Of a stretch of 64,000 nucleotides of DNA, positions 757-64,000 are shown in pieces; within the stretch, counting starts at the first letter, position 1, and the number at the start of each line of letters is the position of its first letter. Source of the stretch: an uncultured Acidobacteriota bacterium. GTDB lineage: Bacteria; Acidobacteriota; Thermoanaerobaculia; Thermoanaerobaculales; Sulfomarinibacteraceae. The notes under the pieces were generated by a model. The model ran no database searches, was not told where the DNA came from, and worked only from the letters and a program-made list of their open reading frames with translations. Location: the NCBI GenBank assembly GCA_963844845.1, contig CAWJPW010000008.1, positions 192,257 to 256,256 on the forward strand. The letters run 5' to 3'. Made by a program: the position numbers and the translations under genes.

Positions 757-3144
757 TCACAGGGTCTTGAGGTACTCCACCAGGTCGTTGAGCTGGTCCT
801 TGGTCATGTCGTTGGTCACCCCGTGCTGGTCGTGGGGGTTGAAGCGGGTCCAGATCTCCTCCAGCGTCGCCGCCCGCCCGTCGTGCAGGTAGGGCGCGGT
901 CTCGTAGATGTTGGTGAGGTGCGGCACGTCGAAGACGTCGTGGGTGTCGAGCTCGGAGCCGGTGCCCACCGCCACCTGCTCCCGGTTGGTGAAGTAGGGC
1001 GGGCGGTGGCAGGTGGCGCAGCGCTGGGGCTTGGGGATGGGCTTCCCCGCGTTGCCCCGGGTGCGCTCGAACAGAGCCTTGCCGCGGCGCTGAGCCGGGG
1101 TCAGGGTGTCGCCGACGCGGTGACGGTTGGGGTTGCGGGGGATGGTGCAGATGTAGCGTTCGAGAGCCGTGACCTGGTCGGGGGTGAACGGGTCGATGCG
1201 GGTGAAGAAGACCGCCAGGCGCGGACCGCACTGGCGGGCCAGGGTGGCGTTCTTGCCGGTCCACTTGAAGGGCGCGGTGTCGAGGATCCCGCGCAGGCTG
1301 CGGTTGTCCACCGGGTTGAGGCCGAGGCCGTCGGGCTCGATGTCGTAGGTGATGCCATCGACGCCGCCGTCGGGGTGGCAGGAGTGGCAGGAGAACTGTC
1401 CCTCGAAGGTCACCGCCGCGCTGTGGAAGATGCGCTCGCCGCGGCGCGCCAGGGTGAGCTCGGCCGGTCCGCCCAGCGGGATGACGGCGACGCGCGCGAG
1501 GCGCGCCGTGTCGATCACCGAAACCGCGTCGTCGAGGGCGTCGGCGACGTAGACGAAGCGGCCGTCGGGGGCCACTGCGAGCCCGCGCGGATTGTCGCCC
1601 ACCGGGATGCGGCAGGTGACGTACTCGGTGGCAAGGCCCATGTGGTCGGGCAGGACGGTCCGGCGCCGCTCGTCGGTCGCCCCCTCGACCACCGCCCGCA
1701 GGCGCGCGAGGTCGACCACCGCCACCTGATCGACGCCGCCTCCGCTGACGAAGGCGAGGCGGCCGTCCGGGGTGATGACCACGTCGGTGGGATCGGCAAA
1801 GGCCGCAGCGGGCTCGTCGAGCAGTACCTGGTCGACGCGGCCGTCGCGCCACAGGATGCCGAGCCCGTTGGTGAGCACCCAGCCCTGCACCACCCGGGTC
1901 ATGGGCACCAGGTTCTTGGTGCGGATGAGGGTGACGAGGGCGTACTCACCCCCCGGCGCCACCGCCACTCCCTGCACCAGGTTGGCATCCGGGATCATGA
2001 CGCGGGTGTCGACCATCGCCCGCGCGCTGCCCACCACCGTCACCTCGGAGCGGGAGGACTCACGGAAGCCGACGAAGTGCGAGAGGTTGTTGGTGACGAG
2101 GACACGCGCGCCGTCGGCGGTGCGGGCCACCCCCCAGGCGCCGCGGCCGGCGGCCAGCCGCTTGCGCTCACAGCCGGCGGCGAGATCGACCACCGAAATG
2201 TCGCCGGAGCCGGCATTGGCCACGAAGAGCGTGCCGCCCCCAGCGTCGGTGACGAGCCCGTGCGGCTCGTCACCCACCGGGATGGTGGCGGTCACCGCCA
2301 GGCGCGCGGTGTCCACCACCGAAACGGTGTCGTCGCCGCGGTTGGAGACCACCGCGCGGCGTCCGTCGGGGGTCAGGCAGACCCCGTGCGGCAGGGCGCC
2401 CACCGGCACCTCGGCAACCACCCGGCGAGCCCTGGTGTCCACCACCACCAGGCTGTGCGAAGCCTCGCACGCGGCGTAGAGACGGCCGCCGTCGGGGCTC
2501 ACGGCCAGGTTGAACGGGGTCTTGTAAACCACCTCGAAAGGTGCGGCCGCCGTCGCGGCCCGGATCGTCGCATCGTGCGCCGGAAGCGGGGCCGGGAGGC
2601 TTCCCGGCGGCACCGGGTGGGCGATGGCGGCGAGCGCCCGCTCGATGTCGAAGGGGCGGGACCCCAGGACCGTGGTGTGCGAGCCCTTCTCCTTGTGACA
2701 GCCCAGACAGAAGGCGGCGTCCGGCACCTCCAGCGCCGGCCTCGAGGTCACGTCGGCCTCGGCGTGGCTGGAGCCGGCGCCGTGGCAGAGCTCGCACTGG
2801 ACGCCGTCTGCCAGGCGGAAGGTGGGATCGCGCTGCCACCCCTCGGTGTCGGCGGCGGTGGCGTGGCAGCCGAGGCAGATGGGGTTGCTGAAGGGATCGC
2901 CCGGGGTTCCCGAGAGGCGCGCGATCTCCCGCGACTCCGGCCGCGCCAGCGCGGCGTAGGCGCGGGCGTGGGGGGAGCTCTGCCACGGCGTCACCGCATC
3001 GCCCTGCGCGCCGCCCAGGTGACACTGGCGGCACACCGCTACGCCCACCCACACCGCCGGCTCATCGTCCACCGCCGCAGCGGCCGGAAGCGCGGCCAGC
3101 ACCGCCGCCACGAGGGCCGCCGCCGCGCGGCGCCCAGGGCTCAC
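757..3144 (-). CDS. Fusion protein: multihaem cytochrome c + YVTN-type beta-propeller + di-haem cytochrome c peroxidase/MauG-like domain
   Basis: 795-aa ORF with signal peptide. N-terminal CxxCH motifs: CRQCH, CLGCH, CELCH, CLGCH. Central propeller repeats: LYAACEASHSLVVVD, VVSNRGDDTVSVVD, LFVANAGSGDISVVD. C-terminal peroxidase-like part: FSCHSCHPDGG ... CATCH ... APYLHDG. 4-nt overlap with the upstream gene. Confidence 0.85.
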   Translation of the reverse strand: MSPGRRAAAALVAAVLAALPAAAAVDDEPAVWVGVAVCRQCHLGGAQGDAVTPWQSSPHARAYAALARPESREIARLSGTPGDPFSNPICLGCHATAADTEGWQRDPTFRLADGVQCELCHGAGSSHAEADVTSRPALEVPDAAFCLGCHKEKGSHTTVLGSRPFDIERALAAIAHPVPPGSLPAPLPAHDATIRAATAAAPFEVVYKTPFNLAVSPDGGRLYAACEASHSLVVVDTRARRVVAEVPVGALPHGVCLTPDGRRAVVSNRGDDTVSVVDTARLAVTATIPVGDEPHGLVTDAGGGTLFVANAGSGDISVVDLAAGCERKRLAAGRGAWGVARTADGARVLVTNNLSHFVGFRESSRSEVTVVGSARAMVDTRVMIPDANLVQGVAVAPGGEYALVTLIRTKNLVPMTRVVQGWVLTNGLGILWRDGRVDQVLLDEPAAAFADPTDVVITPDGRLAFVSGGGVDQVAVVDLARLRAVVEGATDERRRTVLPDHMGLATEYVTCRIPVGDNPRGLAVAPDGRFVYVADALDDAVSVIDTARLARVAVIPLGGPAELTLARRGERIFHSAAVTFEGQFSCHSCHPDGGVDGITYDIEPDGLGLNPVDNRSLRGILDTAPFKWTGKNATLARQCGPRLAVFFTRIDPFTPDQVTALERYICTIPRNPNRHRVGDTLTPAQRRGKALFERTRGNAGKPIPKPQRCATCHRPPYFTNREQVAVGTGSELDTHDVFDVPHLTNIYETAPYLHDGRAATLEEIWTRFNPHDQHGVTNDMTKDQLNDLVEYLKTL

Positions 3145-4766: not shown

Positions 4767-6235
4767 GGCGCCGCCTCCGGCGGGCGGTCGGTCTCGGCGG
4801 GCGGCCGCACCAGCGGCACCGCCGGGCGCCGCAGGGCGGCCGGCAGGCGGTTGGGGGGCGCCAGCTCGCGGTCCTCGTGGCAGCCGATGCAGCCACGCCG
4901 CTCGTTGGGCATCACCCAGGTCCAGCCGGTCTGCCGCGCGACCACGCCGCCGTCGGCGTCGAGGAGCTCGAAGGCCAGCGGCACCCGCGCCGGCACCGCC
5001 ACGTGGAAGGAGCCGTCCTCGGCGAGGGGGACCTCGCCCAGCACCACCCGCCCGGGGCCTTCCGGACCCTCAGCCCCGCCCGGCCGGCCCTCGACCACGC
5101 GCAGGGTCGTGGCCGCCGCCAGACGGGCGAGGCCCGGGCGGTCACTGCGGTGGGCGCTGAGGCAGTAGAAGACGCCTGCCTCCCGGCGCCCGTCCACCAC
5201 CGACGAGCGCCCCGCCACCCGCGGATGGGGTGTCAGCTCGGCCGCCGCCAGGAGATGGGCGCCGGGGTCGGCCGCCACCCTGTAGAGGCGCGCGCCGGTA
5301 GCCGGGTCCAGCTTCCAGACCACGTACGGAGCGTCGCCCCCCAACCGCCGGAACGAGGCGAGCAGGGAGCCGTCCGCCAGTGGCAGGGGGCTTGCCCAGG
5401 CGCCGTCGCCACCGCCGACCACCAACCGGTGCCCGTGGAGGGGTCGGCGAAGCCGCACCGCCGCCAGGTCGCCGCCGCCCAGGAGCCCGGGGGCCTCGGA
5501 CTCCACCAGCCACGCCCAACCGTCGGACCCCACGCGCACCGCGTGGACGAAGCGCGAGCCGCCGTGGGCCACTGCCCACGGCATCAGGTCGGTACCGTCA
5601 AGGTTCACCGCCATGAGCACCTGCCGGGCCGCGCCGACCTCGTCCCGGCGCCAGCTGGAGAACACGATGCGGCCGTTGGCCAGGAGATCGGGCTCGAGGT
5701 CGGAGCCCAGGTTGAAGGTGAGCGGTTGCGCCTGCCCGCCGTCGAGGGCAGCCGCAAAAACTGCCGTGGCTGGAGCGCCACTGTTCTCGTCCGGTCGCCC
5801 CGGGACGCTCGACACGTAGACGAAGCGGTCGCTCGGGTGATCGTCGTCGAGGTGGAAGATGGCGCCGGCCCAGCGTGGCGACGTGCTGTCGCCAGGCCCG
5901 TGGGTGAGCTGCTCGGGGTGTGAGCCATCCGCATCCATGCGCCAGATCTGCCACCGCTCGCCGGCCTCGCGCCGGCCCGCGAAGAGCACCTCGCGGCCGT
6001 CGAACGACACCGCCGGGTCGCGGGCGGCGGCAAAGCCCGCCGTGAGCACCCGCCCCGCACCGCCGTCCCCGGGCGACAGCCGCAGGATCTGGCAGCCGGC
6101 GCAGCCGGCGAGGTCGCTGCCCACCGGGACCCGCACGACCAGCAGGTCGGCGCCCGCCGCCGGCAGCGCGAGGGCCACGGCGAGCAGCAGAGCGCCCGCT
6201 CCGAGCGTCCGTCGGGCACGCGTCTCAGCAGCCAC
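4763..6235 (-). CDS. PD40/TolB-like beta-propeller protein with C-terminal single haem-c motif (HzsA-middle-domain-like)
   Basis: ORF 4763..6436 trimmed to in-frame GTG at 6235, where the signal peptide (RRTLGAGALLLAVALALPAAGA) begins; the longer form overlaps the preceding gene. PD40-like repeats: VSFDGREVLFAGRR..WQIWRMDADGSHPEQLT. GCIGCHEDRE near the C-terminus. Confidence 0.6.
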   Translation of the reverse strand: MAAETRARRTLGAGALLLAVALALPAAGADLLVVRVPVGSDLAGCAGCQILRLSPGDGGAGRVLTAGFAAARDPAVSFDGREVLFAGRREAGERWQIWRMDADGSHPEQLTHGPGDSTSPRWAGAIFHLDDDHPSDRFVYVSSVPGRPDENSGAPATAVFAAALDGGQAQPLTFNLGSDLEPDLLANGRIVFSSWRRDEVGAARQVLMAVNLDGTDLMPWAVAHGGSRFVHAVRVGSDGWAWLVESEAPGLLGGGDLAAVRLRRPLHGHRLVVGGGDGAWASPLPLADGSLLASFRRLGGDAPYVVWKLDPATGARLYRVAADPGAHLLAAAELTPHPRVAGRSSVVDGRREAGVFYCLSAHRSDRPGLARLAAATTLRVVEGRPGGAEGPEGPGRVVLGEVPLAEDGSFHVAVPARVPLAFELLDADGGVVARQTGWTWVMPNERRGCIGCHEDRELAPPNRLPAALRRPAVPLVRPPAETDRPPEAAP

Positions 6236-7373
6236 CGGCGGGCTCCCTCGCAGGCTGCACTGCTGTGGCGTCGAGCTCGAAGAGGAGCTCGTCGCGGCAC
6301 ACGTCACCCGCCACGGTGACCATCGGCACGCTCTCCAGGCCGCGGCGGCGCAGTACCGCGGCGAGGGACGCCCCGTCGGCGGGCCGCTTGACGAAGGCGG
6401 TTGCCTGGCATACGTCGCCGAGGCTCGCTCCCGCACCGGCCAGCAGTGCCGCCACCGTGTCGAGGGTGCACTCCACCTGGGCGGTGAAATCGCCCGGGTG
6501 GCACGATGCCCCGGCCGCGTCGATGGCCGCCGTCCCCGAGACCAGCAGATAGCGACAGCTCGCCGAGGCGACCGCGAGCCCGCGAGAGAACGCAGACCCG
6601 TAGTCCGGCGCCTCGTTCTGGCATGGGTTGACCAGGCGCTCGACGCGGTGCTGGTGGCCGGCCCGCGGCCGCGCGGCCACCAGGTCGAGCGTGCACCACC
6701 CGCCCCGCAGCCCGCGCCCGCGAATGCCGGTGCTGGCCGGTATGCGCGGCGCCGACGTCCCGTTGAGCACCCCGAAGCGCCGGTAGGCGTCGTTGCGGAC
6801 CCGGTTGAAGCCGTCGTACCAGTCGAGGATGCGGTCGAGGTAGAACCAGGTACGCAGCACGTCCGCGAAGGTGAAACCGCTGGCCGCCATCATGTCGGCG
6901 GCGAGCTCGAGCACCGCTGCCGCCTCGCCCACGGGGGTGCGGCATCCCTCGTCCACCAGGAGGCGGCCGACATCCGAGAGACCCAGGTAGGTGGCCTCGT
7001 CGCCCTCCACGAGCCAGCCGCACGGCTGGCCCTGCCAGCTCAGCGGTCGCGGCGCAGAGCGTTTCCCCCGCGCCACCACCAGGTGGACGCCGGCGACACC
7101 GGCAGCGCCGCACGGCGCGCCCTCGATCCAGGTAGGTGGCACCGCGAAGGCCGGGACCACGCCGAGCGCCGCACGCCGTGCCGCCAGGCTCGCCGGAGCC
7201 GCCGCCAGCGCGCCGAAAACCCGCTCCTGGAGCACCACTGCATTCGCCGCCACGACCGCCTCGGCGAGCTCCCGGTAGGCGGCGCCCAGCACGACCGGCG
7301 AAGCCGCGTCGGGGCTCGGCGAGCTCCATGTGAGGAAACCGAGGTCTCCATTTCCCCGTGACGATGCGATCAT
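6225..7373 (-). CDS. YjgF/RidA-fold protein, chorismatase (FkbO/Hyg5/XanB2)-like
   Basis: 413-aa ORF trimmed to the second ATGATCGC start (7373), which has a purine-rich RBS; the 7466 start is GTG with no RBS. Motifs: LRTWFYLDRILDWYDGFNRVRNDAY, VSGTAAID, LFELDA. The family assignment is from remembered motifs only. Confidence 0.5.
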   Translation of the reverse strand: MIASSRGNGDLGFLTWSSPSPDAASPVVLGAAYRELAEAVVAANAVVLQERVFGALAAAPASLAARRAALGVVPAFAVPPTWIEGAPCGAAGVAGVHLVVARGKRSAPRPLSWQGQPCGWLVEGDEATYLGLSDVGRLLVDEGCRTPVGEAAAVLELAADMMAASGFTFADVLRTWFYLDRILDWYDGFNRVRNDAYRRFGVLNGTSAPRIPASTGIRGRGLRGGWCTLDLVAARPRAGHQHRVERLVNPCQNEAPDYGSAFSRGLAVASASCRYLLVSGTAAIDAAGASCHPGDFTAQVECTLDTVAALLAGAGASLGDVCQATAFVKRPADGASLAAVLRRRGLESVPMVTVAGDVCRDELLFELDATAVQPAREPAGGC

Positions 7374-26079: not shown

Positions 26080-26980
26080 GGGGCGCCGAGCCGCACTGGA
26101 TCTGGTGCAGGGCGGTGCGAGGTTCCACCTGGATGGTGGAGTGCCCGATGGCGAACTCCTCATCCAAGGTCGAGCGCAGACGGACGAGGAGGTCGGGGGG
26201 CGCCTCCGGACCGGCTACCACGTGGGCCGAGAGGGCCACGAACCCCGAGGTAATGGTCCACACGTGGAGGTCGTGGACGCCGTCCACCCCGCGCACCCGG
26301 GTGAGCGCTGCCGCCACCTCGTCGAGGTCGATGTGCGAGGGGGTCCCCTCCATGAGCACGTTGACCGCCTCTCTGAGCAAGCCCCACGACGAGAGCAGGA
26401 CCAGGGCCCCGATGAGCACCGAGGCCAGCGGGTCCGCCCACCCCCAGCCGAACGCCCAGATGAGCGCGCCGGCGGCCATCGCCTGCACGCTGCCCAGGGT
26501 GTCAGCGAGAACGTGGAGCCAGACCCCACGCACATTGAGGTTGTCCTCACGCCCGCCGTGCAGGATTGAGAGGCTCACGAGGTTGACCACGAGCCCGCCC
26601 GCGGCCACCGCCAGCATCGGTCCGCCCTGCACCGCGTGGGGGGTGTGGAAGCGCTGCCAGGCCTCCACGAAGATGAACACCGAGATCGCCACCAGGGTGC
26701 CGGCGTTGGCCAGAGCGGCGAGGATCTCGGCACGGTGGTAGCCGAAGGTGCGCCGCGCCGAGTGCGGCCGGCGGGCGAGGCGCACGGCGACCAGCGAGAG
26801 TGCGAGGGCGCCGGCATCCGAGAACATGTGCCCGGCGTCGGCGAGCAGCGCCAGGGAGCCGGTGAGCCAGCCGCCGACGATCTCCGCTGCCATGTAGGTG
26901 AGCGCGAGGGCCAGCGTCGCCCCCAGCCGGCGCGTGTTCCGGGCTCCAGCCTCCTCGTTGGCGTGGGCGTGGCTCGCCAC
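26072..26980 (-). CDS. czcD: Cation diffusion facilitator (Zn/Co/Cd efflux) transporter
   Basis: 302 aa, GTG start with GGAGGAG RBS. His-rich N-terminus MASHAHANEE. Motifs LLADAGHMFSD, FGYHRAEIL, HVLADTLGS. C-terminal cytoplasmic domain with HDLHVW. Confidence 0.9.
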   Translation of the reverse strand: MASHAHANEEAGARNTRRLGATLALALTYMAAEIVGGWLTGSLALLADAGHMFSDAGALALSLVAVRLARRPHSARRTFGYHRAEILAALANAGTLVAISVFIFVEAWQRFHTPHAVQGGPMLAVAAGGLVVNLVSLSILHGGREDNLNVRGVWLHVLADTLGSVQAMAAGALIWAFGWGWADPLASVLIGALVLLSSWGLLREAVNVLMEGTPSHIDLDEVAAALTRVRGVDGVHDLHVWTITSGFVALSAHVVAGPEAPPDLLVRLRSTLDEEFAIGHSTIQVEPRTALHQIQCGSAPRA

Positions 26981-26998: not shown

Positions 26999-27026
26999 AT
27001 TGTGCGCGAAACGTCCCGACGTTCAA
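26999..27026 (-). promoter_or_regulatory. Putative czcD promoter with palindromic operator in the spacer
   Basis: Minus strand reads TTGAAC-GTCGGGACGTTTCGCG-CACAAT. The spacer contains a perfect 6-2-6 inverted repeat, AACGTC GG GACGTT (27009-27022). Confidence 0.4.
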
Positions 27027-27049
27027 AGGACCGGAGGTCCCAAGGCGCC

Positions 27050-27432
27050 GAACCTCGGCCCCGGTCGCGGCGCCGGCCCCGGACACCGCGTCGGCTCCTG
27101 ATGCTCCCAACCCCGGCTCCCGGGCGGCGGCCTTGCCGCCGCCCGTCGGCGCGGCCCCGGGGGCGGCAACGGCACACGCAGGCAGACGGCAGCACGGCCG
27201 TCCCCGGGCCCTGCGCCGAGTCGCCTCCCTGGTCGCTCGGAGCAAGTACTCCGAACGCCAAGGGCCGTGGGAGCCCCCCATGACGTTTCCCGCGAACGCC
27301 CTCCCGGCGAGGAAGCGCTCCCGGGAAAGCGTCATGGACGGCACGCCCGCCGGAGGACACCTTCTCCGGAGGACACCTGCTCCGCGGCGGTATCGGACGC
27401 GGCCGCGGTCCCCGTCCCGGCCCCGGACGCTG
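27050..27432 (+). repeat. Repeat family 1, copy 1 (core about 27098-27390), structured non-coding element
   Basis: Block-wise identity with 33086-33357 (minus) and 63297-63570 (plus). Frame-breaking indels between copies; hairpins conserved with compensatory changes; flanked by GGNCCN-type hexamer runs. Confidence 0.8.
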
Positions 27433-27569
27433 TCAATGGCACCGGCGCGCGGACGTGCCGACCGGGGACCTCCTCCGACCTTGCCAGGAGGAGACCGGGC
27501 GTGCGAGACTACCCGCGCTCGACGATGGCGAGAAGCGACTGCCGCGCAGGCGCATGGGACACATACGGG

Positions 27570-29249
27570 ATGACACGAGTACTCCACGCCGTAGCCGCCA
27601 CGGCCCTCCTGGCCGGGCTACTCTTCATGACCGCCGGCTGCCGACCGGGTGCAGGCACGCAGGTCGGTATCGCCCCACCCGACGACAGCCTCGAGCAGGG
27701 CGATACCCGCCACGAGGCCCTCGCCGATGCGGACGTCGGCAAGTGGATCACGGTTTGCGAGCCGGAGGCCTGCTTCAACGGCTATACGCTCGCGCTCTTC
27801 CGCCGCCGGATCCCCATGCTGGTCGACCTCAACGGTCGGATCGTGCACTCATGGCCTCGAGTCCGCGCGGTGGCGCGTACCCGGCTCAACCCGGACGGAA
27901 CCCTCACGGTCGACGGTGTCGACAACTACCTCAAGGAGTACTCGTGGGGCGGCCGGCTCGACTGGTACTACCGCCCGGCCAACGAGGAGGATCTCCTCCA
28001 CCACGACTTCTTTCGTCTCGCCAACGGCAACTACCTGCTCCTCCTACACGAGGCACCGGGTCGGCTCGACAAGCTGATCGAGGTCGACCGCTCGAAGCGG
28101 GTGGTGTGGTCGTGGCGGATTGCCGACCACCTCGGCGTCGACTTACCGCAGGCCGATCGCTCGTCGCACGACCCGACCCACTGCAACTCGGTGCAGGAGC
28201 TACCGCCCAACCCGCACTTCGCCGCCGGCGACGAGCGCTTCCGCCCCGGCAACATCCTGGTAAGCGCGCGCAACCTCAACTGCATCTTCGTCATCGACCG
28301 TGAGACCGGCAAGGTGGCCTGGCGCTACGAGGACAGCCTCGACTACCAGCACGAGGCCCGCATGATCGCCTCCGGAAACGTGGGAGAAGGCCTCATCGTC
28401 GTCTTCGATAACGGCTACAACAACCGCGAGGCCTACCGGCGATCATCGGTCCTCGCCATCGACCCGGTGGAGCGCCGCGTGGTGTGGCGCTACGCCGCCG
28501 ATGGGTTCTTCTCCTCGGTCGCCGGCACCGCCCAGCCGCTACCCAACGGCAACGCGCTGATCAGCTCGAGCCAGGGCGGGCGCATCTTCGAGATCACGAC
28601 CCAGGGGCACGTCGTGTGGCAGCTCGAGCCGCCCTACCTGCCCATGCGCGCGCGCCGCTACCCGGCGGACTACTGTCCGCAGCTCGAGCGCCTCAAGCCC
28701 CAGCCCCTCCACGCCGTCGCCCGCTCCGACACGCGCCCGTTCATCGACCAGGAGCTGTACGCCTACACCCTCCCCGAGGAGCACCAGACGATCAGGGACT
28801 TCCACGGCAAGACCCGGAGGCTGGTACGGGAGCCCTCGAGCTGCCGCGTGCTGTGGCTGCCCCCCAGGCCGCAGATGGTCCTCGCCTACGGTCTCGACGC
28901 GGGACCGTTGGGGCCCGCCAGCGTGAAGGGTCTCTTCCGCGCCACCCTCGAGCCGCTCGCCGGAGGCAGGCTTCGGGTGCTGCTCGACGACGAGGTCGAC
29001 TCGTCCGATCAGGAGCTCTGGCGGGAGCGCAGCATCCTTCTCGACGGTCTCGGCTACCAGAAGGTCCGGCTCTGCCTGGACGCCCGTTGGGAGGGCGACC
29101 TCGGCGAGCGGCAAGGCGACCGCATCGTACGCTGGCAGAGCCCGTGGGTCGGCAGCCGGGTCAAGCCCAAGCCGACGCCGGAGCCCGAGCTCGACCGCGA
29201 GCGCAAGCTCCGCGCCCAGCAGCTCAAGACCATCGGCTACCTGCAGTAG
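27570..29249 (+). CDS. Arylsulfotransferase (ASST/Arylsulfotran_2)-like beta-propeller lipoprotein
   Basis: ORF 27267..29249 trimmed to ATG 27570 (MTRVLHAVAATALLAGLLFMTAGC lipobox). Motifs: HHDFFRLANGNYLLL, THCNSVQ, NILVSARNLNCIFVIDRETGKVAWRY, VVFDNG. Extra C-terminal region of about 200 aa ending QQLKTIGYLQ. Confidence 0.7.
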   Translation: MTRVLHAVAATALLAGLLFMTAGCRPGAGTQVGIAPPDDSLEQGDTRHEALADADVGKWITVCEPEACFNGYTLALFRRRIPMLVDLNGRIVHSWPRVRAVARTRLNPDGTLTVDGVDNYLKEYSWGGRLDWYYRPANEEDLLHHDFFRLANGNYLLLLHEAPGRLDKLIEVDRSKRVVWSWRIADHLGVDLPQADRSSHDPTHCNSVQELPPNPHFAAGDERFRPGNILVSARNLNCIFVIDRETGKVAWRYEDSLDYQHEARMIASGNVGEGLIVVFDNGYNNREAYRRSSVLAIDPVERRVVWRYAADGFFSSVAGTAQPLPNGNALISSSQGGRIFEITTQGHVVWQLEPPYLPMRARRYPADYCPQLERLKPQPLHAVARSDTRPFIDQELYAYTLPEEHQTIRDFHGKTRRLVREPSSCRVLWLPPRPQMVLAYGLDAGPLGPASVKGLFRATLEPLAGGRLRVLLDDEVDSSDQELWRERSILLDGLGYQKVRLCLDARWEGDLGERQGDRIVRWQSPWVGSRVKPKPTPEPELDRERKLRAQQLKTIGYLQ

Positions 29250-31790: not shown

Positions 31791-32981
31791 TCACCCGCCG
31801 TCGGCGACGGCCGCGCCCAGGCGTTGGGCCAGTGCCGCGGCGGCCTCCGGCCAGCCAGGCGGTGGGGTCGCCACTGCGGAGACCCTTACCCAACCGGGGG
31901 CGCCGAAGTCCTCGCCGGGCCAGAGGCCGACGCCGTGGCGCCGGGCGAGGCGCACACACCACTCTCGCGACGTGCCGACCCCGGCGCGCTTCAGCAGCGG
32001 CCCGATGTCGCACCACAGGTAGAAGCCACCCTGCGGCATCGCGGCGGTCAGGCCGGCGGCGGCGAGGGCGGCGCGGACCCCGGCCAAGCGCTCGCGCACC
32101 GCCGCGCGGGCGGCTTCGCGGTACGCCTCGGGCACCTCGGGCAGCCGCACCAGGGCGCGCTGGACGTGGGTGTTGGGCGGGTTGAGGACCTGCGCCTGGA
32201 AGCCCGCCACCCGCGCGACCATCGACGGGTCGGCGGCAACCCAGCCCACCCGCCAGCCACAGGCGGCGTAGCTCTTGGACGCAGAGCGCAGCTGCACCAC
32301 GGTGTCGAGGGTCGGGTCGAACCGGGCCGGCAGGGTGTCGCTGCCGGACGCGAAGCGGAAGGCCTCGTATGCCTCGTCGCTCACTAGACGAAGGCCGTGC
32401 TCGCGGCACAGCTCGACCAGAGAGCGCGCTTGCTCACCGGTGAGCGTGGCGCCGTCGGGGTTGGCCGGTGAGGATAGCACCAGCGCCCTGGTGCGCGGGG
32501 TGATCGCCCGCGCGAGCCGCCCGGGTTCCCAGTCGAACCGCCCGCCCGGCTGCTGCACGCCCACCGCTCGCGCGCCCAGCAACCGCGCCACCGCCGGGTA
32601 GGCCGGGTAGCATGGCACCGGGTGGAGGAGCTCGTCGCCGGGAGCGAGGATGGCGCCGAGCACCGCCAGGATACCGGCCTTGGCGCCGTGGGTGACCATC
32701 AGCTGGGCGGGCGCCAGGGCCTGGCCCTCGCGGCGGTGCGCCTCGACGAGCGCGTCACGCAGCGCCGGTAGCCCCAGCGGCGGAGCATAGTCGCGGGCCG
32801 GCTCCAACGCCGCTTCGCGCAACGCCGCGGCGAGTTCGTCGGGCGCCGCGAAGCACGGCGTGCCCACCAGCCAGGCGTGCGGCGTTCCGGCGAACTCCGC
32901 CAGCGCCGCGACCACGTCGTCGACGGCGCGCGACGCCAGCGCCGGCAACCGCCCGGGGGATGGGGAGCCATCGGGTGTCAT
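31791..32981 (-). CDS. Class I/II pyridoxal-phosphate-dependent aminotransferase
   Basis: ORF 31791..33071 trimmed to ATG 32981, because the longer form runs into the repeat element. PLP-Lys motif RSASKSYAACGWRVGW; LSSPANPDG. Confidence 0.85.
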   Translation of the reverse strand: MTPDGSPSPGRLPALASRAVDDVVAALAEFAGTPHAWLVGTPCFAAPDELAAALREAALEPARDYAPPLGLPALRDALVEAHRREGQALAPAQLMVTHGAKAGILAVLGAILAPGDELLHPVPCYPAYPAVARLLGARAVGVQQPGGRFDWEPGRLARAITPRTRALVLSSPANPDGATLTGEQARSLVELCREHGLRLVSDEAYEAFRFASGSDTLPARFDPTLDTVVQLRSASKSYAACGWRVGWVAADPSMVARVAGFQAQVLNPPNTHVQRALVRLPEVPEAYREAARAAVRERLAGVRAALAAAGLTAAMPQGGFYLWCDIGPLLKRAGVGTSREWCVRLARRHGVGLWPGEDFGAPGWVRVSAVATPPPGWPEAAAALAQRLGAAVADGG

Positions 32982-33035
32982 CGGCGATCGAGTGTATCGT
33001 TCAAACGTTCGAACGTCTCCCCCGCCCGGGCCGTA

Positions 33036-33450
33036 GGCAGGGTCTGCGTCCGGGACCGGGGCCGGGGCCACGACCGGGGCCGCGGCCGCCCCGGAGCAGG
33101 TGCCCTCCGGCGGACGTGCCGTCCATGACGTTCTGCCAGGAGCGCCTCTTCACACGGAGCGCGTCTGCGGCAAACGTCATGGGGGGCAATCACGGCCCTT
33201 GGCGCCCGGAGAAGTGGCCCCGAACGACCAGGCAGGCGACTCGGCGCAGGGGCCCGGGGGCGGCCGTGCTGCCGTCTGCCTCCTCGTGCCGTTGCCGCCC
33301 CCGGGGCCGCGCCGACGGGCGGCGGAGCCGCCCGGGAGCCGGTGTCGGGAGCATCAGCGACCGGCGCGGTGGCCGGGGCCGCGACCGTGGGCCGCGACCG
33401 CGGCCGGGGCCGGTACCGGGGCCTGGGCCGCGGCCGGGACCGTCAACCGG
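33036..33450 (-). repeat. Repeat family 1, copy 2 (core about 33086-33357, inverted orientation)
   Basis: The reverse complement aligns block-by-block with copies 1 and 3. One hairpin uses three G-U pairs that exist only in this orientation. Confidence 0.8.
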
Positions 33451-33487: not shown

Positions 33488-34621
33488 CTACTCGCCACCC
33501 CGGATCCCGAACTCCTCCAGCACCTTCGCGGTGTGCTCGCCGAGCCGCGGCGCGGGGCGTGACGGCGTCCGGCCCAGCGACGGGAGCCACGGCCCCGGAA
33601 CCTCGACCGTGGCGCCGCCGGGGGCGGTCGCCTCCTCGAGCAGGCCGGCGGCGCGGAAGTAGGGCTCCGCCCGGGCGGCGTCGAGGTCGTTGACCGGGGT
33701 CACCGGCAGACCGCGCTCCGCGGCGGCGCCCAGCCAGTGCTCGGCGGGGGCGCCGGCGAAGGCGGCCGCCACCTCGCGTGCGGCCCGCTCGCCCTCGGGG
33801 CCGAGGTCGAGGCCGGCGCCGGCGAGGTGGCGAAGCCCCAGCAGCTCCACCAGGCCGACCCAGAGCTTGGGCTCCAGGGCGGCCACCGCCACCCGCCCAC
33901 CGTCAGCGCACGCGTAGAGGCGATAGCTGGGGCAGCGGCCGCTCAGCAGGGTCGCGGCGACGCTGTCGCCACCGGCGGCCCGATCCGCCCAGGGCCAGGT
34001 GAGGAACGGCAGCGGCGCCGCGGCCAGGGGCTGCTCCACTACGCTCCCGACGCCGCTGCGGTGGCGCTCGAGCAGCGCGGCCAGCACCGCGCTGGCGGCG
34101 AGGAGGCCCGCGGCGACGTCAGCGAGGAGGATGTGGGGCAGTGCGCCGCCGGGCACGAGGTCGAGGACCCCGGCCATGGCGGTGAAGTTGAGGTCATGGC
34201 CGACCCGCCCGGCCCACCCGGGAGCGCGGCCGAAGCCGGACAGCGAGCACCACACCAGGCCGGGGTTGAGGGCGGCGAGGCGCTCGCGGCCGAGGCCCCA
34301 CCGCGCCATCGTACCGGGGCGGAAGCTCTCCACCAGCACGTCGGCGCCCTTGGCCAGTCGGCGCACCGCCGCCGCTCCCCCGGGCGAGCGCAGATCGAGG
34401 CCCAGCGACTCGGCGCCGCGATAGCAGGCGACGAACCCGGCGCCGGTGTTCCCCACCAGCGGCGGGGTGTGGCGGAAGGGGTCGCCGGCGACCGGGTCCT
34501 CGACCTTGAGAACCCGCGCGCCGAGGTCGAGGAGCTGGCGCGCCAGCACCGCCCCGGGCAGCATGCGCGAGAGGTCGAGGACCACGAGGCCCTGGAGGGG
34601 AGCCGCGTCAGCGCCCGTCAC
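33488..34621 (-). CDS. Family III CoA-transferase (CaiB/BaiF / alpha-methylacyl-CoA racemase-like)
   Basis: 377 aa. LQGLVVLDLSRMLPGAVLARQLLDLGARVLKVE; 4-nt overlap with the upstream ACAD gene. Confidence 0.85.
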   Translation of the reverse strand: MTGADAAPLQGLVVLDLSRMLPGAVLARQLLDLGARVLKVEDPVAGDPFRHTPPLVGNTGAGFVACYRGAESLGLDLRSPGGAAAVRRLAKGADVLVESFRPGTMARWGLGRERLAALNPGLVWCSLSGFGRAPGWAGRVGHDLNFTAMAGVLDLVPGGALPHILLADVAAGLLAASAVLAALLERHRSGVGSVVEQPLAAAPLPFLTWPWADRAAGGDSVAATLLSGRCPSYRLYACADGGRVAVAALEPKLWVGLVELLGLRHLAGAGLDLGPEGERAAREVAAAFAGAPAEHWLGAAAERGLPVTPVNDLDAARAEPYFRAAGLLEEATAPGGATVEVPGPWLPSLGRTPSRPAPRLGEHTAKVLEEFGIRGGE

Positions 34622-38369: not shown

Positions 38370-38387
38370 TCCCCTTCCCGACCCCCA

Positions 38388-38416
38388 GATTCGAAGATTC
38401 AAGGATTCAAAGATGA
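38388..38416 (-). promoter_or_regulatory. AT-rich triple motif (ATCTTTGAATC CTTGAATC TTCGAATC on the minus strand), 18 nt upstream of the fatty-acid CoA ligase start
   Basis: Plus strand GATTCGAAGATTCAAGGATTCAAAGATGA. Complementary to the motif pair at 38559-38597. Confidence 0.5.
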
Positions 38417-38558: not shown

Positions 38559-38597
38559 TAATCTTTGAATCTTTATATCTTACCATCTTTGAATCAC
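38559..38597 (-). promoter_or_regulatory. Two direct GATTCAAAGAT 11-mers flanking a TATAAA box (minus strand)
   Basis: Minus strand reads GTGATTCAAAGAT-GGTAAGATATAAA-GATTCAAAGAT-TAAGG. GC is far below the window average. Confidence 0.5.
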
Positions 38598-46287: not shown

Positions 46288-46390
46288 TGAGGTTCCCCCT
46301 CCCGCCCATCCACAACCAGCATTCGTGGCCTGGCGACACCCCCACGGTTATTAGGACAGGCTGCAGCAGCGAGTAGGACGAGACCTCGAC

Positions 46391-46575
46391 GATTCCCAAG
46401 TCCGAGCAGCTCGTCGAGCTTCGTCGCGAGACCGCGGAGGTGCCTGTCAGCGTGGTGATCCGAACAAGGCGGACCCAGAGGCGCAGCAGCGCTCCGTCGA
46501 GGACTCCGCCGCCGGGAGGAGCGCCGCGATGGCAGGTGCATCCGCGGGCGCAGGAGATGCTCGGCGAGGTGCCCG
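46391..46575 (+). repeat. Repeat family 2, copy A (about 175-nt structured element)
   Basis: Aligns with 56205-56392, 63594-63735 and 63826-64000. Shared core: CTTCGTCGCGAGACCGCGGAGG...GGTGATyCGAmCAAGG...GCCGCCGGGAGrAGCGCC. Confidence 0.8.
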
Positions 46576-56039: not shown

Positions 56040-56204
56040 CCGCTGCGGCACTGTTCGCGGGCGCACCCGCATCCGACCGGGAACCCGGAAGCCCTCCAAA
56101 GCAGCTGCCGGCAGCTCCCCTTCGTCGCCCGATCTCTCGATGACCCCCATCGCAACGACGACCACCAGCGACTTCTCCAGGCCGAAGCCCGTCCTCCCGT
56201 CACC

Positions 56205-56392
56205 CGTCGAGCCCCCATGTCTCGCCAGTCTTCGTCGCGAGACCGCGGAGGTGCCCATCAGCATGGTGATTCGACCAAGGAGCCGCCGCAGGCGTAGCAG
56301 CGCTACGTCGAGGACGGCGCCGCCGGGAGAAGCGCCGCGATGGCGGGTGCATCCGCGGTCGCAGCAGAAGACTGGCGAGACATGGGGGCGAC
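56205..56392 (+). repeat. Repeat family 2, copy B (complete, closed by a perfect 22-bp stem)
   Basis: CCCCCATGTCTCGCCAGTCTTC (56212-56233) is the exact reverse complement of GAAGACTGGCGAGACATGGGGG (56367-56388). Inner stem: GACCGCGGA/TCCGCGGTC. Confidence 0.85.
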
Positions 56393-63123: not shown

Positions 63124-63164
63124 CTCCTGCCGCGAGCACGACCGCAGAGCGAAGAGACGCAAGA

Positions 63165-63193
63165 GGGCCCGGCGCAACGCGCCGGGCCCTTTT
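63165..63193 (+). terminator. Rho-independent terminator of the EF-G gene
   Basis: GGGCCCGGCGC AAC GCGCCGGGCCC followed by TTTT. Confidence 0.8.
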
Positions 63194-63247
63194 CAGCTCG
63201 TGCGGCGGACCGTTGAGGAAGGACGGAGCCCGAGGCCGGCTGCCCCT

Positions 63248-63575
63248 CCGGTCCCGGTCCCGGTCACGGTCACGGCCGCGGCCACCGCCCCGGTTGCTGA
63301 TGCTCCCGACACCGGCTCCCGGGCGGCACAGCCGCCGGGCGGCGCGGTCTCGGGGGCGGCAGCGGCACCGGCTGGGAGACGGCAGCGAGGCCGCCCCCGG
63401 GCCCCGGCGCCGAGTCGCCTGCGTCGTCGTTCGAGGGCACTAATCCGAGCGGAGTACCCGCGGATTGCCACCCATGGCATTTCCCGCAGGGGCGCTTCGA
63501 GTGAGAAGACGTTCCCGGGAAGATGCCATGGGTGGCACGTCCCGCCGAGGGAGACCTGCTCCGGGGCGGCCTCGG
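63248..63575 (+). repeat. Repeat family 1, copy 3 (core about 63297-63570)
   Basis: Aligns with copies 1 and 2. 5' flank is a hexamer run: CCGGTCCCGGTCCCGGTCACGGTCACGG. Hairpin CATGGCATTTCCCG/CGGGAA(G)ATGCCATG carries two compensatory pair changes relative to copy 1. Confidence 0.8.
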
Positions 63576-63593
63576 CCTCCTGTCTCCTCCCAT

Positions 63594-63735
63594 CTCACAA
63601 GCCCGCGGGTCTCGGTGATCTTCGTCGCGAGACCGCGGAGGCGCCGGTCAGCGTGGTGATCCGACCAAGGCGGAACCGGAGGCGTAGCCCAGCTACGTCG
63701 CAGGCAGCGCCGCCGGGAGAAGCGCCACAATGGCC
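63594..63735 (+). repeat. Repeat family 2, copy C (3'-truncated or diverged)
   Basis: Shares GGGTCTCGGTGATCTTCGTCGCGAGACCGCGGAGG...GGTGATCCGACCAAGG...GCCGCCGGGAGAAGCGCC, then loses similarity. Confidence 0.7.
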
Positions 63736-63825
63736 TCCTCCGCCCCCGGCATCGCCCTCACAGGAAGGACCGGCGTCCTCCGAGTCCCCGGACCACCTCC
63801 CTCGTCCCCCTCCTCCTCTCCCCCC

Positions 63826-64000
63826 GGTTCCCAAGCCCGCGGGTCTCGCCGGGCTTCGTCGCGAGACCGCAGAGCCGCCTGTCAGGGTGGTGATTCGACC
63901 AAGGCTGCGCCGAGGCGTAGCCCAGCTACGTCGCAGGCGCAGCCGCCGGGAGAAGCGCCGCCCTGACTGGTGGATCTGCGGTCGCAGCAGACGACCGGCG
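63826..64000 (+). repeat. Repeat family 2, copy D (runs off the window end)
   Basis: The inner stem has a compensatory change (GACCGCAGA/TCTGCGGTC versus GACCGCGGA/TCCGCGGTC in copy B). The closing stem is only partly visible before the window ends. Confidence 0.75.

Follow-up and report, generated by a model that had tools for sequence, protein, structure and literature searches.

An uncatalogued, clade-wide family of structured intergenic repeats in Thermoanaerobaculia and Holophagae

The repeat described here lies in a 64-kb window (the whole stretch of DNA that was analysed; G+C content 71.9%), between two genes of the minus strand that encode a family III CoA-transferase (33488–34621) and a class I/II aminotransferase (31791–32981). 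As a preliminary description of this DNA had it, the CoA-transferase gene upstream of the repeat closes a fad-type cluster, and 105 nt separate the end of the repeat core from the ATG of the aminotransferase gene at 32981. A repeat finder and a three-way alignment matched 33078–33389 on the minus strand (copy 2) with 27053–27369 (copy 1) and 63255–63577 (copy 3) on the plus strand. The block-for-block correspondence claimed earlier for the reverse complement of about 33086–33357 was recovered in the alignments, which pair this segment with 27087–27383 and 63286–63578. An nhmmer profile built from the three copies found exactly three full copies in the 64-kb window, with E-values of 1e-99 to 2e-110 that place the similarity far above chance; the sole further matches were palindromic self-matches of the same three copies. 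By this profile, the full extent of similarity is 27042–27440 (plus strand) for copy 1, 33030–33421 (minus strand, core together with the flanking hexamer arrays, E = 2e-110) for copy 2, and 63227–63626 (plus strand) for copy 3. The cores of the three copies are 75–87% identical, loops and linkers included, and are separated by indels of 1, 6 and 10 nt. With three copies in 64 kb, the element has been amplified in this genome.

All three copies are intergenic according to third-position G+C and Pfam annotation. Copy 1 is flanked by two divergent genes, one for a CDF transporter (start at 26980, minus strand) and one of the ASST type, whose start is likely at 27570, where a lipoprotein-type signal peptide begins. 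Copy 3 is located downstream of an EF-G paralogue and behind a terminator-like hairpin, GGGCCCGGCGC-aac-GCGCCGGGCCC-TTTT, at approximately 63164–63196, and its 3' flank is replaced by two repeats of a different family, family 2 (63583–64000). The repeats mislead ORF callers, by which both the ASST and the aminotransferase ORFs were extended into the element. The nearest homologue of the aminotransferase is 56% identical, and the proteins of the window are singletons in a large protein collection. Neither 185,579 species genomes nor JGI metagenomes contained an exact match to the most conserved 25-nt block of the repeat (GATGCTCCCNACNCCGGCTCCCGGG), which places the source genome and its close relatives outside those collections.

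The core of the element is a discrete block of about 270–290 nt with five predicted hairpins, A to E. In copy 2, the core with its hairpins spans 33086–33357 on the minus strand, and a five-sequence profile matches it over 33368–33080 (E = 7e-68). Two hexamer arrays, direct repeats of one another, flank it on the same strand: a 5' array, (NCGGNC)n, of about 12 units (33371–33442; TRF period 6, 11.8 copies) and a 3' array at 33050–33088 (TRF period 6, 6.5 copies). NCGGNC-like arrays also precede copies 1 and 3 and a copy in a related locus (L039; L numbers denote loci of relatives, described below), and the 3' array follows the cores of copies 1 and 2. Similarity between these two copies extends via the hexamer array past the end of the core, to about 33030 in copy 2. 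There, a G-rich box (CCCGGGCGGGGGAG) is followed by an 8-nt tandem array (ACGTTCGA ACGTTTGA ACG), together covering 32996–33030 on the minus strand; the array ends 14 nt before the aminotransferase ATG. A module of G-box and short array is also found 3' of D–E copies (those with hairpins D and E) in L050, L057, L014, L011 and L054, and we infer that the box and the 8-nt array are part of the element. Pairing from flank to flank is restricted to self-complementary hexamers (CCGG, GGCC and CGCG units).

The hairpins differ in how far they are conserved. Hairpin A, CGGGCGGC-UCC-GCCGCCCG (33316–33334, minus strand), was identified by fold prediction; in copy 1, a 6-nt insertion adds three matched pairs to it and thus lengthens it symmetrically. 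Hairpin B (33241–33315, minus strand) has a G+C-rich stem of about 21 pairs that is nearly invariant among the window copies, with 92.6–100% of the alignment cells paired in its two main stems and 88.9% in the 3-pair apical helix. Hairpin D, UGCC...GGCA (33117–33188, minus strand), is the most widely conserved module, and a C·A mismatch or a CC/AC loop recurs near its foot. Hairpin E, CCGCCGGAG...CUCCGGGG (33089–33112, minus strand), contains a 16-nt tandem duplication in copy 1. Hairpin C, between B and D, is treated separately below, since the strand argument of the preliminary description was built on it.

To follow the repeat beyond the window, we used 80 loci of at most 22 kb each that were supplied by an EF-G protein search. 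The best EF-G matches, with up to 78% identity, all belonged to Thermoanaerobaculia MAGs and place the source among Thermoanaerobaculia-type Acidobacteriota; some 60 of the loci come from this class-level group as well. The three-copy profile gave weak matches in L014 and L042. Covariance models built on the part with hairpins D and E, R1 and then R2, found copies in L011, L012, L018, L020, L033, L039, L050 and L057, three tandem copies in L054, and hairpin D in L014 and L042, while 19 loci from other phyla had no hairpin D–E family member by the same models. D–E modules occur in about ten further loci within approximately 1 Mb of relatives' DNA. The complete A–E architecture was detected with the five-sequence profile in two Holophagae loci, L042 (E = 1e-65) and L039 (E = 5e-59), and L014 likewise has equivalents of hairpins A, B and C. 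In these three loci, the positions of hairpins A and B are taken by hairpins of other sequence, the difference from the window copies being strong in L042 and L039. Tandem arrays comprise three copies in L054 and two in L014, and D–E occurs alone in places, so the family is modular and, in places, mosaic or truncated. Copies from one genome are far more alike than copies from different genomes.

What the members share is a signature that reads (C)CGAGGTTGCC(N)CC, a long stem of variable sequence, GA(N)GGCACGCCCGCC and then hairpin E. At the foot of hairpin D and in its flanks, GGTTGCC...GGCACGCCCG, it is the sequence that is conserved, and in the stem itself the pairing: both partners change in 7 of the 14 lower-stem pairs, for a total of 35 compensated cells among 13 sequences, and 91.7% of the lower-stem cells are paired, compared with 31–47% when the partners are slid. 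None of 500 shuffles reached the same pairing and covariation. The covarying hairpins, together with the conserved foot of hairpin D, show that a folded form is under selection. Structural covariation of this kind is also found in the leader/riboswitch class, but the feature is not specific to leaders.

Hairpin C was the basis of the earlier proposal that G-U pairs mark the minus strand of copy 2 as the sense strand of an RNA; we refer to that strand, and its equivalent in other copies, as the proposed sense strand. In copy 2 the hairpin is as described, CGTTCGGGG-CCACTT-CTCCGGGCG at 33226–33203 of the minus strand, with nine pairs, three of them G-U, one of which is unique to this copy. Its stated counterpart in copy 1, CGCTCGGAG...CTCCGAACG, does exist as a hairpin, with 8 of 9 positions paired rather than the full helix; the third pair is C·A (27236/27255), which becomes a G·U wobble when read on the opposite strand. 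The helix of copy 3 contains A·C and G·A. Across the three copies, four pairs of hairpin C are invariant, two vary on one side and three are broken, and no compensatory change was seen. Nor are the loops unrelated, as had been thought: CCACTT and GCACTAA have CACT in common, and a relative has CCAATACT.

The G-U argument was then extended to all helices, A to E, of the three window copies. On the proposed sense strand, 16 G·U cells stand against 6 A·C cells (about 13 versus 6 events), or 10 against 5 when only single transitions from a Watson-Crick majority are counted; the excess in these helices is not significant by either the event or the transition count. The count is moreover tilted toward the proposed sense strand because the structure prediction allowed G-U pairs on that strand. 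The core of copy 2 folds with similar energy on either strand, −144.1 kcal/mol (z −2.25) versus −146.6 kcal/mol (z −2.78). Whole-element folds are better on the strand opposite the proposed sense for copies 1 and 2 and on the sense strand for copy 3, and the joint consensus fold of the three copies reaches −160.7 kcal/mol on the proposed sense strand versus −177.6 kcal/mol on the other. Hairpin D, the hairpin with the best support, reverses the sign. It is more stable on the opposite strand in 10 of 13 family members, and its lower stem, read on the proposed sense strand in 13 sequences, has 15 C·A versus 4 G·U cells. Eight of the 13 aligned sequences, namely copies 1 and 2, L042, L050, L057, L011 and two of the three L054 tandem copies, have C·A at one and the same position. 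Considered together, the wider counts and the folds do not single out a sense strand, and the proposal that G-U pairs mark the minus strand as the RNA strand finds no support in them. G·T wobbles are tolerated in single-stranded DNA too, so such pairs could not distinguish RNA from single-stranded DNA in any case. Some G-U pairs confined to a single hairpin of a single copy are no evidence for an RNA strand; applied to a wider sample, this test changed sign.

The orientation of the copies relative to adjacent genes varies. The proposed sense strand is co-directional with both neighbouring genes for copy 2 and the copies in L039, L050 and L057, and antisense to both for those in L011, L012 and L054; the copies in L020 and L033 share the site of L012, and those in L042 and L014 are flanked by convergent genes. 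Copy 1 is uninformative on orientation because in a divergent region either direction faces a gene. Distances to genes are short: the L042 copy lies 5 nt (model match) to approximately 16 nt (junction comparison) past the EF-G stop codon, the L039 copy 18 nt before a start codon, and the L012 copy lies about 50 nt after a stop codon.

At one site, filled and empty states can be compared. Between the EF-G stop codon and the stop codon of a convergent OsmC-like gene there are about 298 nt in L042, 18 nt in L039 and 74 nt in L041. The extra 282 nt of L042 are an A–E element, which is 74% identical to the copy located 4 kb away in L039. Filled in L042 and empty in L039 and L041, the site indicates that the element is gained or lost as a unit; precise deletion would explain this sole filled-versus-empty case equally well as insertion. 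Comparison of the L042 junctions with the empty sites of L039 and L041 revealed no target-site duplication. AATCCC occurs inside both ends of the insert, but the placement of the junction is uncertain by a few bases; the copy begins directly after TTAA. The L042 copy has neither hexamer arrays nor inverted ends. Other copies are syntenic across genera, namely those upstream of rpsT in L012, L020 and L033 and those beside a gene of 1340 aa in L011 and L014, and their stem feet are conserved about equally to the adjoining coding DNA. Such copies appear to have been kept over long periods, and their synteny and conserved stem feet fit retained function better than pure selfish spread.

To establish the identity of the element, it was compared with catalogued families and with several kinds of functional site. 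No Rfam 15 family matched the window at gathering thresholds, only a tRNA matched in eight related loci, and a relaxed search of copy 2, copy 3 and L014 returned chance-level hairpin matches only (E 0.02–5). A six-frame translation of the element had no match in the protein database. A small protein is contradicted on both strands: copy 3 has a 1-nt indel that shifts the only ATG-initiated frame, which lies in hairpin D, and a stop codon that interrupts the frame of the opposite strand. The start of the L042 copy, GGATTCGAACCC, resembles a T-arm, which raised the possibility of a tRNA-derived (SINE-like) element; ARAGORN found no tRNA, and the window copies are without the motif. TTGCC and GGCACG recall the −12/−24 elements of a sigma-54 promoter, yet they stand in the wrong order, about 66 nt apart, and pair as the foot of a stem. 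An integron attC site was likewise rejected: GTTGG...CCAAC, present in some hairpin D stems, is reversed relative to R''/R' and missing from the window copies, as judged by eye against the attC consensus, and the genomic spacing is unlike that of a cassette array. An intrinsic terminator was rejected because most copies have no U-tract after hairpin D or E and because copy 1 is placed in a divergent promoter region. Neither a sigma-70-type promoter nor an intrinsic terminator turned up in consensus scans of the window copies and their flanks, in a lineage whose promoter rules are poorly known. Transposase, integrase and reverse transcriptase genes were absent from the window and from the surroundings of every copy examined, and no HUH/Y1 transposase, RAYT or TnpA gene is among the 30 annotated genes of the window. 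A literature search returned no relevant report of repeats or non-coding RNAs in this clade.

Several known systems resemble the element in part. REP sequences are defined as imperfect palindromes of 20–40 nt that bear a GTAG or CGTC tag on one side (PMC3733652). Like the REP and BIME elements of enterobacteria and pseudomonads, the family described here is intergenic, non-coding, multi-copy, found in either orientation, sometimes clustered in tandem, and often placed at gene 3' ends or between co-directional genes; its hairpin is held by compensatory change with a conserved foot, and some relatives share copies in synteny where others have none. Unlike them, it measures 270–290 nt, roughly ten times the size of a REP, with five hairpins of 19–75 nt each instead of one, and it is flanked by hexamer and octamer arrays, which REPs do not have. 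Nor does it carry a consistent GTAG/CGTC tag: GTAG (L042) or CGTC (L039 and copy 3) precedes hairpin C in some copies only. It resembles MITEs and PATEs in being a discrete element a few hundred bases long, in its presence or absence as a unit at an orthologous site (a single case), in its amplification in the genome, in its internal or subterminal hairpins and in encoding no protein; it differs in having no clear terminal inverted repeats beyond the self-complementary hexamers, no target-site duplication at the L042 junctions and no known parent insertion sequence. Moreover, hairpin D and its flanks are conserved at class-level divergence and with some synteny, which is seldom so for the short-lived MITE families.

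The neisserial NIME and Correia elements are comparable in their mosaic build, with blocks bracketed by short repeats and families that abut, as families 1 and 2 do at copy 3; no sequence relationship to them is known, and the brackets here are tandem hexamer and octamer arrays. In NIMEs, the brackets are 20-bp dRS3 inverted repeats. HEARO and omega RNAs and the IS605-orfB motifs are similar as multi-hairpin units of 100–300 nt with covarying stems and several copies per genome, but the element has no match to Rfam at any threshold tried, and in contrast to HEARO and omega RNAs, no IscB, TnpB or other partner gene adjoins any of its copies. In its behaviour, the element comes closest to REP/BIME, NIME and MITE/PATE elements; since it lacks or does not clearly show the features that define membership of these named families, it was filed as a new family, outside any of them.

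Four other readings were weighed against that of a dispersed repeat. The one proposed in the preliminary description, a G-U-tuned RNA acting as cis-regulatory leader of the aminotransferase gene (copy 2) and the ASST gene (copy 1), agrees with the position of copy 2 upstream of and co-oriented with the aminotransferase gene, with the co-orientation of copy 1 and the ASST gene, and with the modest G·U excess on the proposed strand in the window copies (16 versus 6 cells). That excess, however, is not significant and is reversed in hairpin D, the divergent setting of copy 1 carries no information, and copy 3 follows the EF-G paralogue and its terminator-like hairpin. Among the relatives' copies are some in convergent regions (L042 and L014) and some antisense to both neighbours (L011, L012 and L054), and the neighbouring genes are functionally unrelated. 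An identity of 75–87% within one genome, even in loops, is also unlike that of riboswitch or leader copies conserved independently of each other. We therefore regard a leader function as very improbable and do not take copy 2 to be dedicated to the aminotransferase gene as its leader. A reading that does not depend on neighbours is that of structured sRNA genes in multiple copies, each with its own promoter and perhaps with the coding strand opposite to the proposed sense, in which the conserved single-stranded stretches beside hairpin D would have a trans-acting or protein-binding role. Orientation independent of neighbours is expected of such stand-alone genes, and copy 3, behind a terminator-like hairpin, would need its own promoter for expression. 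Covariation of the hairpins across class-level distances, sequence conservation of the hairpin D foot and flanks, and synteny of some copies in three genera also agree with this reading, as does the mismatch at a fixed position, C·A on one strand and a U·G wobble on the other, which is seen in many functional RNAs. Against it stand the missing promoter- and terminator-like signals in and beside the window copies, the wedging of copies within 5–50 nt of stop or start codons, the mosaic or truncated members (D–E alone) and tandem arrays, presence or absence as a unit, strand signals that disagree between hairpins, and the lack of an Rfam family. Such sRNA genes are accordingly a possibility that we entertain only tentatively.

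A more specific version of the mobile-element reading is a derivative of a transposon that moves as single-stranded DNA, either an IS200/IS605-type PATE or a REP/RAYT-like element, with subterminal hairpins recognized by an HUH tyrosine transposase encoded elsewhere. Such elements have been described, together with their hairpins (PMC6006769, PMC3733652). Such an origin would account for the G·T wobbles and for the missing inverted ends and target duplications: hairpins A and E lie near the ends of the element, clear terminal inverted repeats are absent, the L042 copy follows TTAA without a target duplication, presence and absence are unit-like, and the stems tolerate wobble and mismatch positions. 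On the other side, no Y1/HUH transposase gene is present in any of the DNA examined, GTAG or CGTC tags are not consistent, and at 270–290 nt and five hairpins the element is bigger and more elaborate than known REPs. The wobble bias varies by hairpin, which gives no single active strand, and the copies, oriented +, − and +, lie in both orientations under a GC skew that is negative over the entire window, which may speak against a strict replication-strand bias, though the copies number only three. In our estimation, this origin is distinctly unlikely. The A–E or D–E unit could, finally, constitute a new class of structured non-coding RNA of Thermoanaerobaculia and Holophagae, functional on the strand opposite to the proposed sense, where the recurrent C·A would become a conserved U·G, and set in a bracketed architecture; we think this rather unlikely. 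If it were true, the class would belong to a clade-wide intergenic architecture between terminators and promoters, in which C- and G-rich boxes and tandem arrays of 6–8 nt bracket a structured cargo, and it would point to a regulatory or RNA-processing system without a described counterpart.

We favor, on balance, a dispersed repeat: an uncatalogued, non-coding and non-autonomous family of intergenic repeats in Thermoanaerobaculia and Holophagae, whose folded form is probably recognized by a protein and which would be passively transcribed, with REP-like effects on transcripts. Likeness within the genome, presence or absence as a unit, effectively random orientation, and tandem or mosaic forms are the marks of such a putative repeat. 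Weighing against it are the missing mobility genes, the lack of clear inverted ends or a target duplication, the single filled-versus-empty site and the copies kept in synteny across genera. We hypothesize that a conserved host or transposition protein recognizes one or both strands when folded and single-stranded, and that through this recognition the element would be copied or kept. Transcription would be passive, within the untranslated regions of neighbouring genes or by read-through, and stable hairpins in the resulting transcripts could block exonucleases or RNA polymerase, as REP and BIME elements do.

Together, our results describe a structured repeat that is found across its clade in a poorly known phylum and is missing from the catalogues. 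Its general kind is familiar; the tandem arrays that flank it are unusual. The three-copy observation of the preliminary description was largely right; of its interpretation, the conserved, folded, non-coding unit stands on the evidence of the covarying hairpins, and the RNA strand and the leader role do not. To our knowledge, Thermoanaerobaculia and Holophagae are known almost solely from MAGs, and their non-coding DNA is essentially undescribed. Because its boundaries are defined, its five hairpins covary and at least one site occurs in both filled and empty states, the family can be used as an annotation feature in these genomes, and it could mark genome rearrangement within the clade.

The window carries a second intergenic repeat, family 2, besides family 1, the non-coding element of about 280 nt with five hairpins (A–E). 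The family-2 unit is a partial palindrome of about 190 nt, and its four copies (46382-46568, 56193-56379, 63583-63769 and 63817-64000) all lie on the plus strand, two of them arranged in tandem immediately 3' of family-1 copy 3. Homologues were found in the relatives, at 2824-3012 (E = 2e-27) and 16041-15902 in locus L006 as well as in loci L033, L010 and L008, and comparison of family 2 with Rfam matched no family. EF-G and copy 3 are separated by a G+C-rich hairpin (63164-63196), 40 nt 3' of the EF-G stop codon, whose 11-bp stem runs into TTTT and which looks like the intrinsic terminator of that gene. Having four T instead of five, it escaped the terminator consensus scan.

Arrays of hexamers (NCGGNC or NNTGAC) flank the family-1 core both in the source genome (window 27056-27082, 33050-33088, 33371-33442 and 63248-63294) and in the related locus L039 (16290-16380). 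In locus L001 (1-143 and 680-990), where such arrays reach up to about 300 nt, they also stand without a family-1 element, on both sides of a protein gene; judging by eye from the translation, we take its product to be a putative four-helix-bundle protein of the 23S rRNA intervening-sequence type.

Two changes are private to family-1 copy 1: a 6-nt insertion (region 27121-27145) through which hairpin A gains three matched pairs (GGC...GCC) in length, and a 16-nt tandem duplication, CCGGAGGACACCTKCT, of 2.2 units within hairpin E (region 27350-27384). Longest-ORF calling places the starts of two neighboring genes so that they overlap family-1 repeats: the ASST-type gene at 27267 (affected stretch 27267-27569) and the aminotransferase gene at 33071 (affected stretch 32982-33071). 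The true starts are likely 27570, the first base of the signal peptide MTRVLHAVAATALLAGLLFMTAGC, and 32981, which gives an exact match to a database protein, respectively. At 33005-33016, 24 nt ahead of the ATG of the aminotransferase gene, lies a perfect 12-nt palindrome, ACGTTCGAACGT; the related ACGTCCCGACGTTCAAAG (27010-27030) precedes the CDF transporter start on the other strand by about 35 nt. Both may be operator sites, or members of the intergenic 8-nt array system described next.

A/T-richer tandem arrays with a period of 7-8 nt abound between the genes of Thermoanaerobaculia, Holophagae and Sulfomarinibacteraceae, but are seldom found in the loci from other phyla. Each comprises 3-9 units (GAATTCG, AAATCCG, TTCTTCGT, ACTTAATC and others); examples are window 38387-38414, 38560-38595 and 32996-33016, L021 3130-3283 and 12073-12099, L023 12088-12114, L050 6243-6264 and 6968-6991, and L054 2686-2711 and 12082-12127. 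Typically the array directly follows a stop codon and precedes a C-rich box and a terminator-like hairpin; alternatively, it follows a G-rich box, with a sigma-54-type TGGCAC-N5-TTGCA or a GCTATGAT box 10-25 nt downstream of the array. Inverted pairs spaced about 100 nt apart are frequent. To our knowledge, this intergenic pattern has not been described.

A further conserved non-coding module, GACCGCGGGCGTTC...CAGCCGCGTCACC...GGGTGGGCAYACCCACCGC with the terminal hairpin CGAAATCCCGC...GCGGGATTTCG, adjoins copies of the family-1 D-E hairpin pair in two distant MAGs (L014 2500-2620 and L050 5880-6010); it matched no Rfam family. At the EF-G/OsmC-like junction, where the Holophagae locus L042 holds a 282-nt family-1 element, locus L036 has a 1.5-kb insert (5755-7279) that appears to contain a protein-coding gene. 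This intergenic site seems to be an insertion point that has been used repeatedly.
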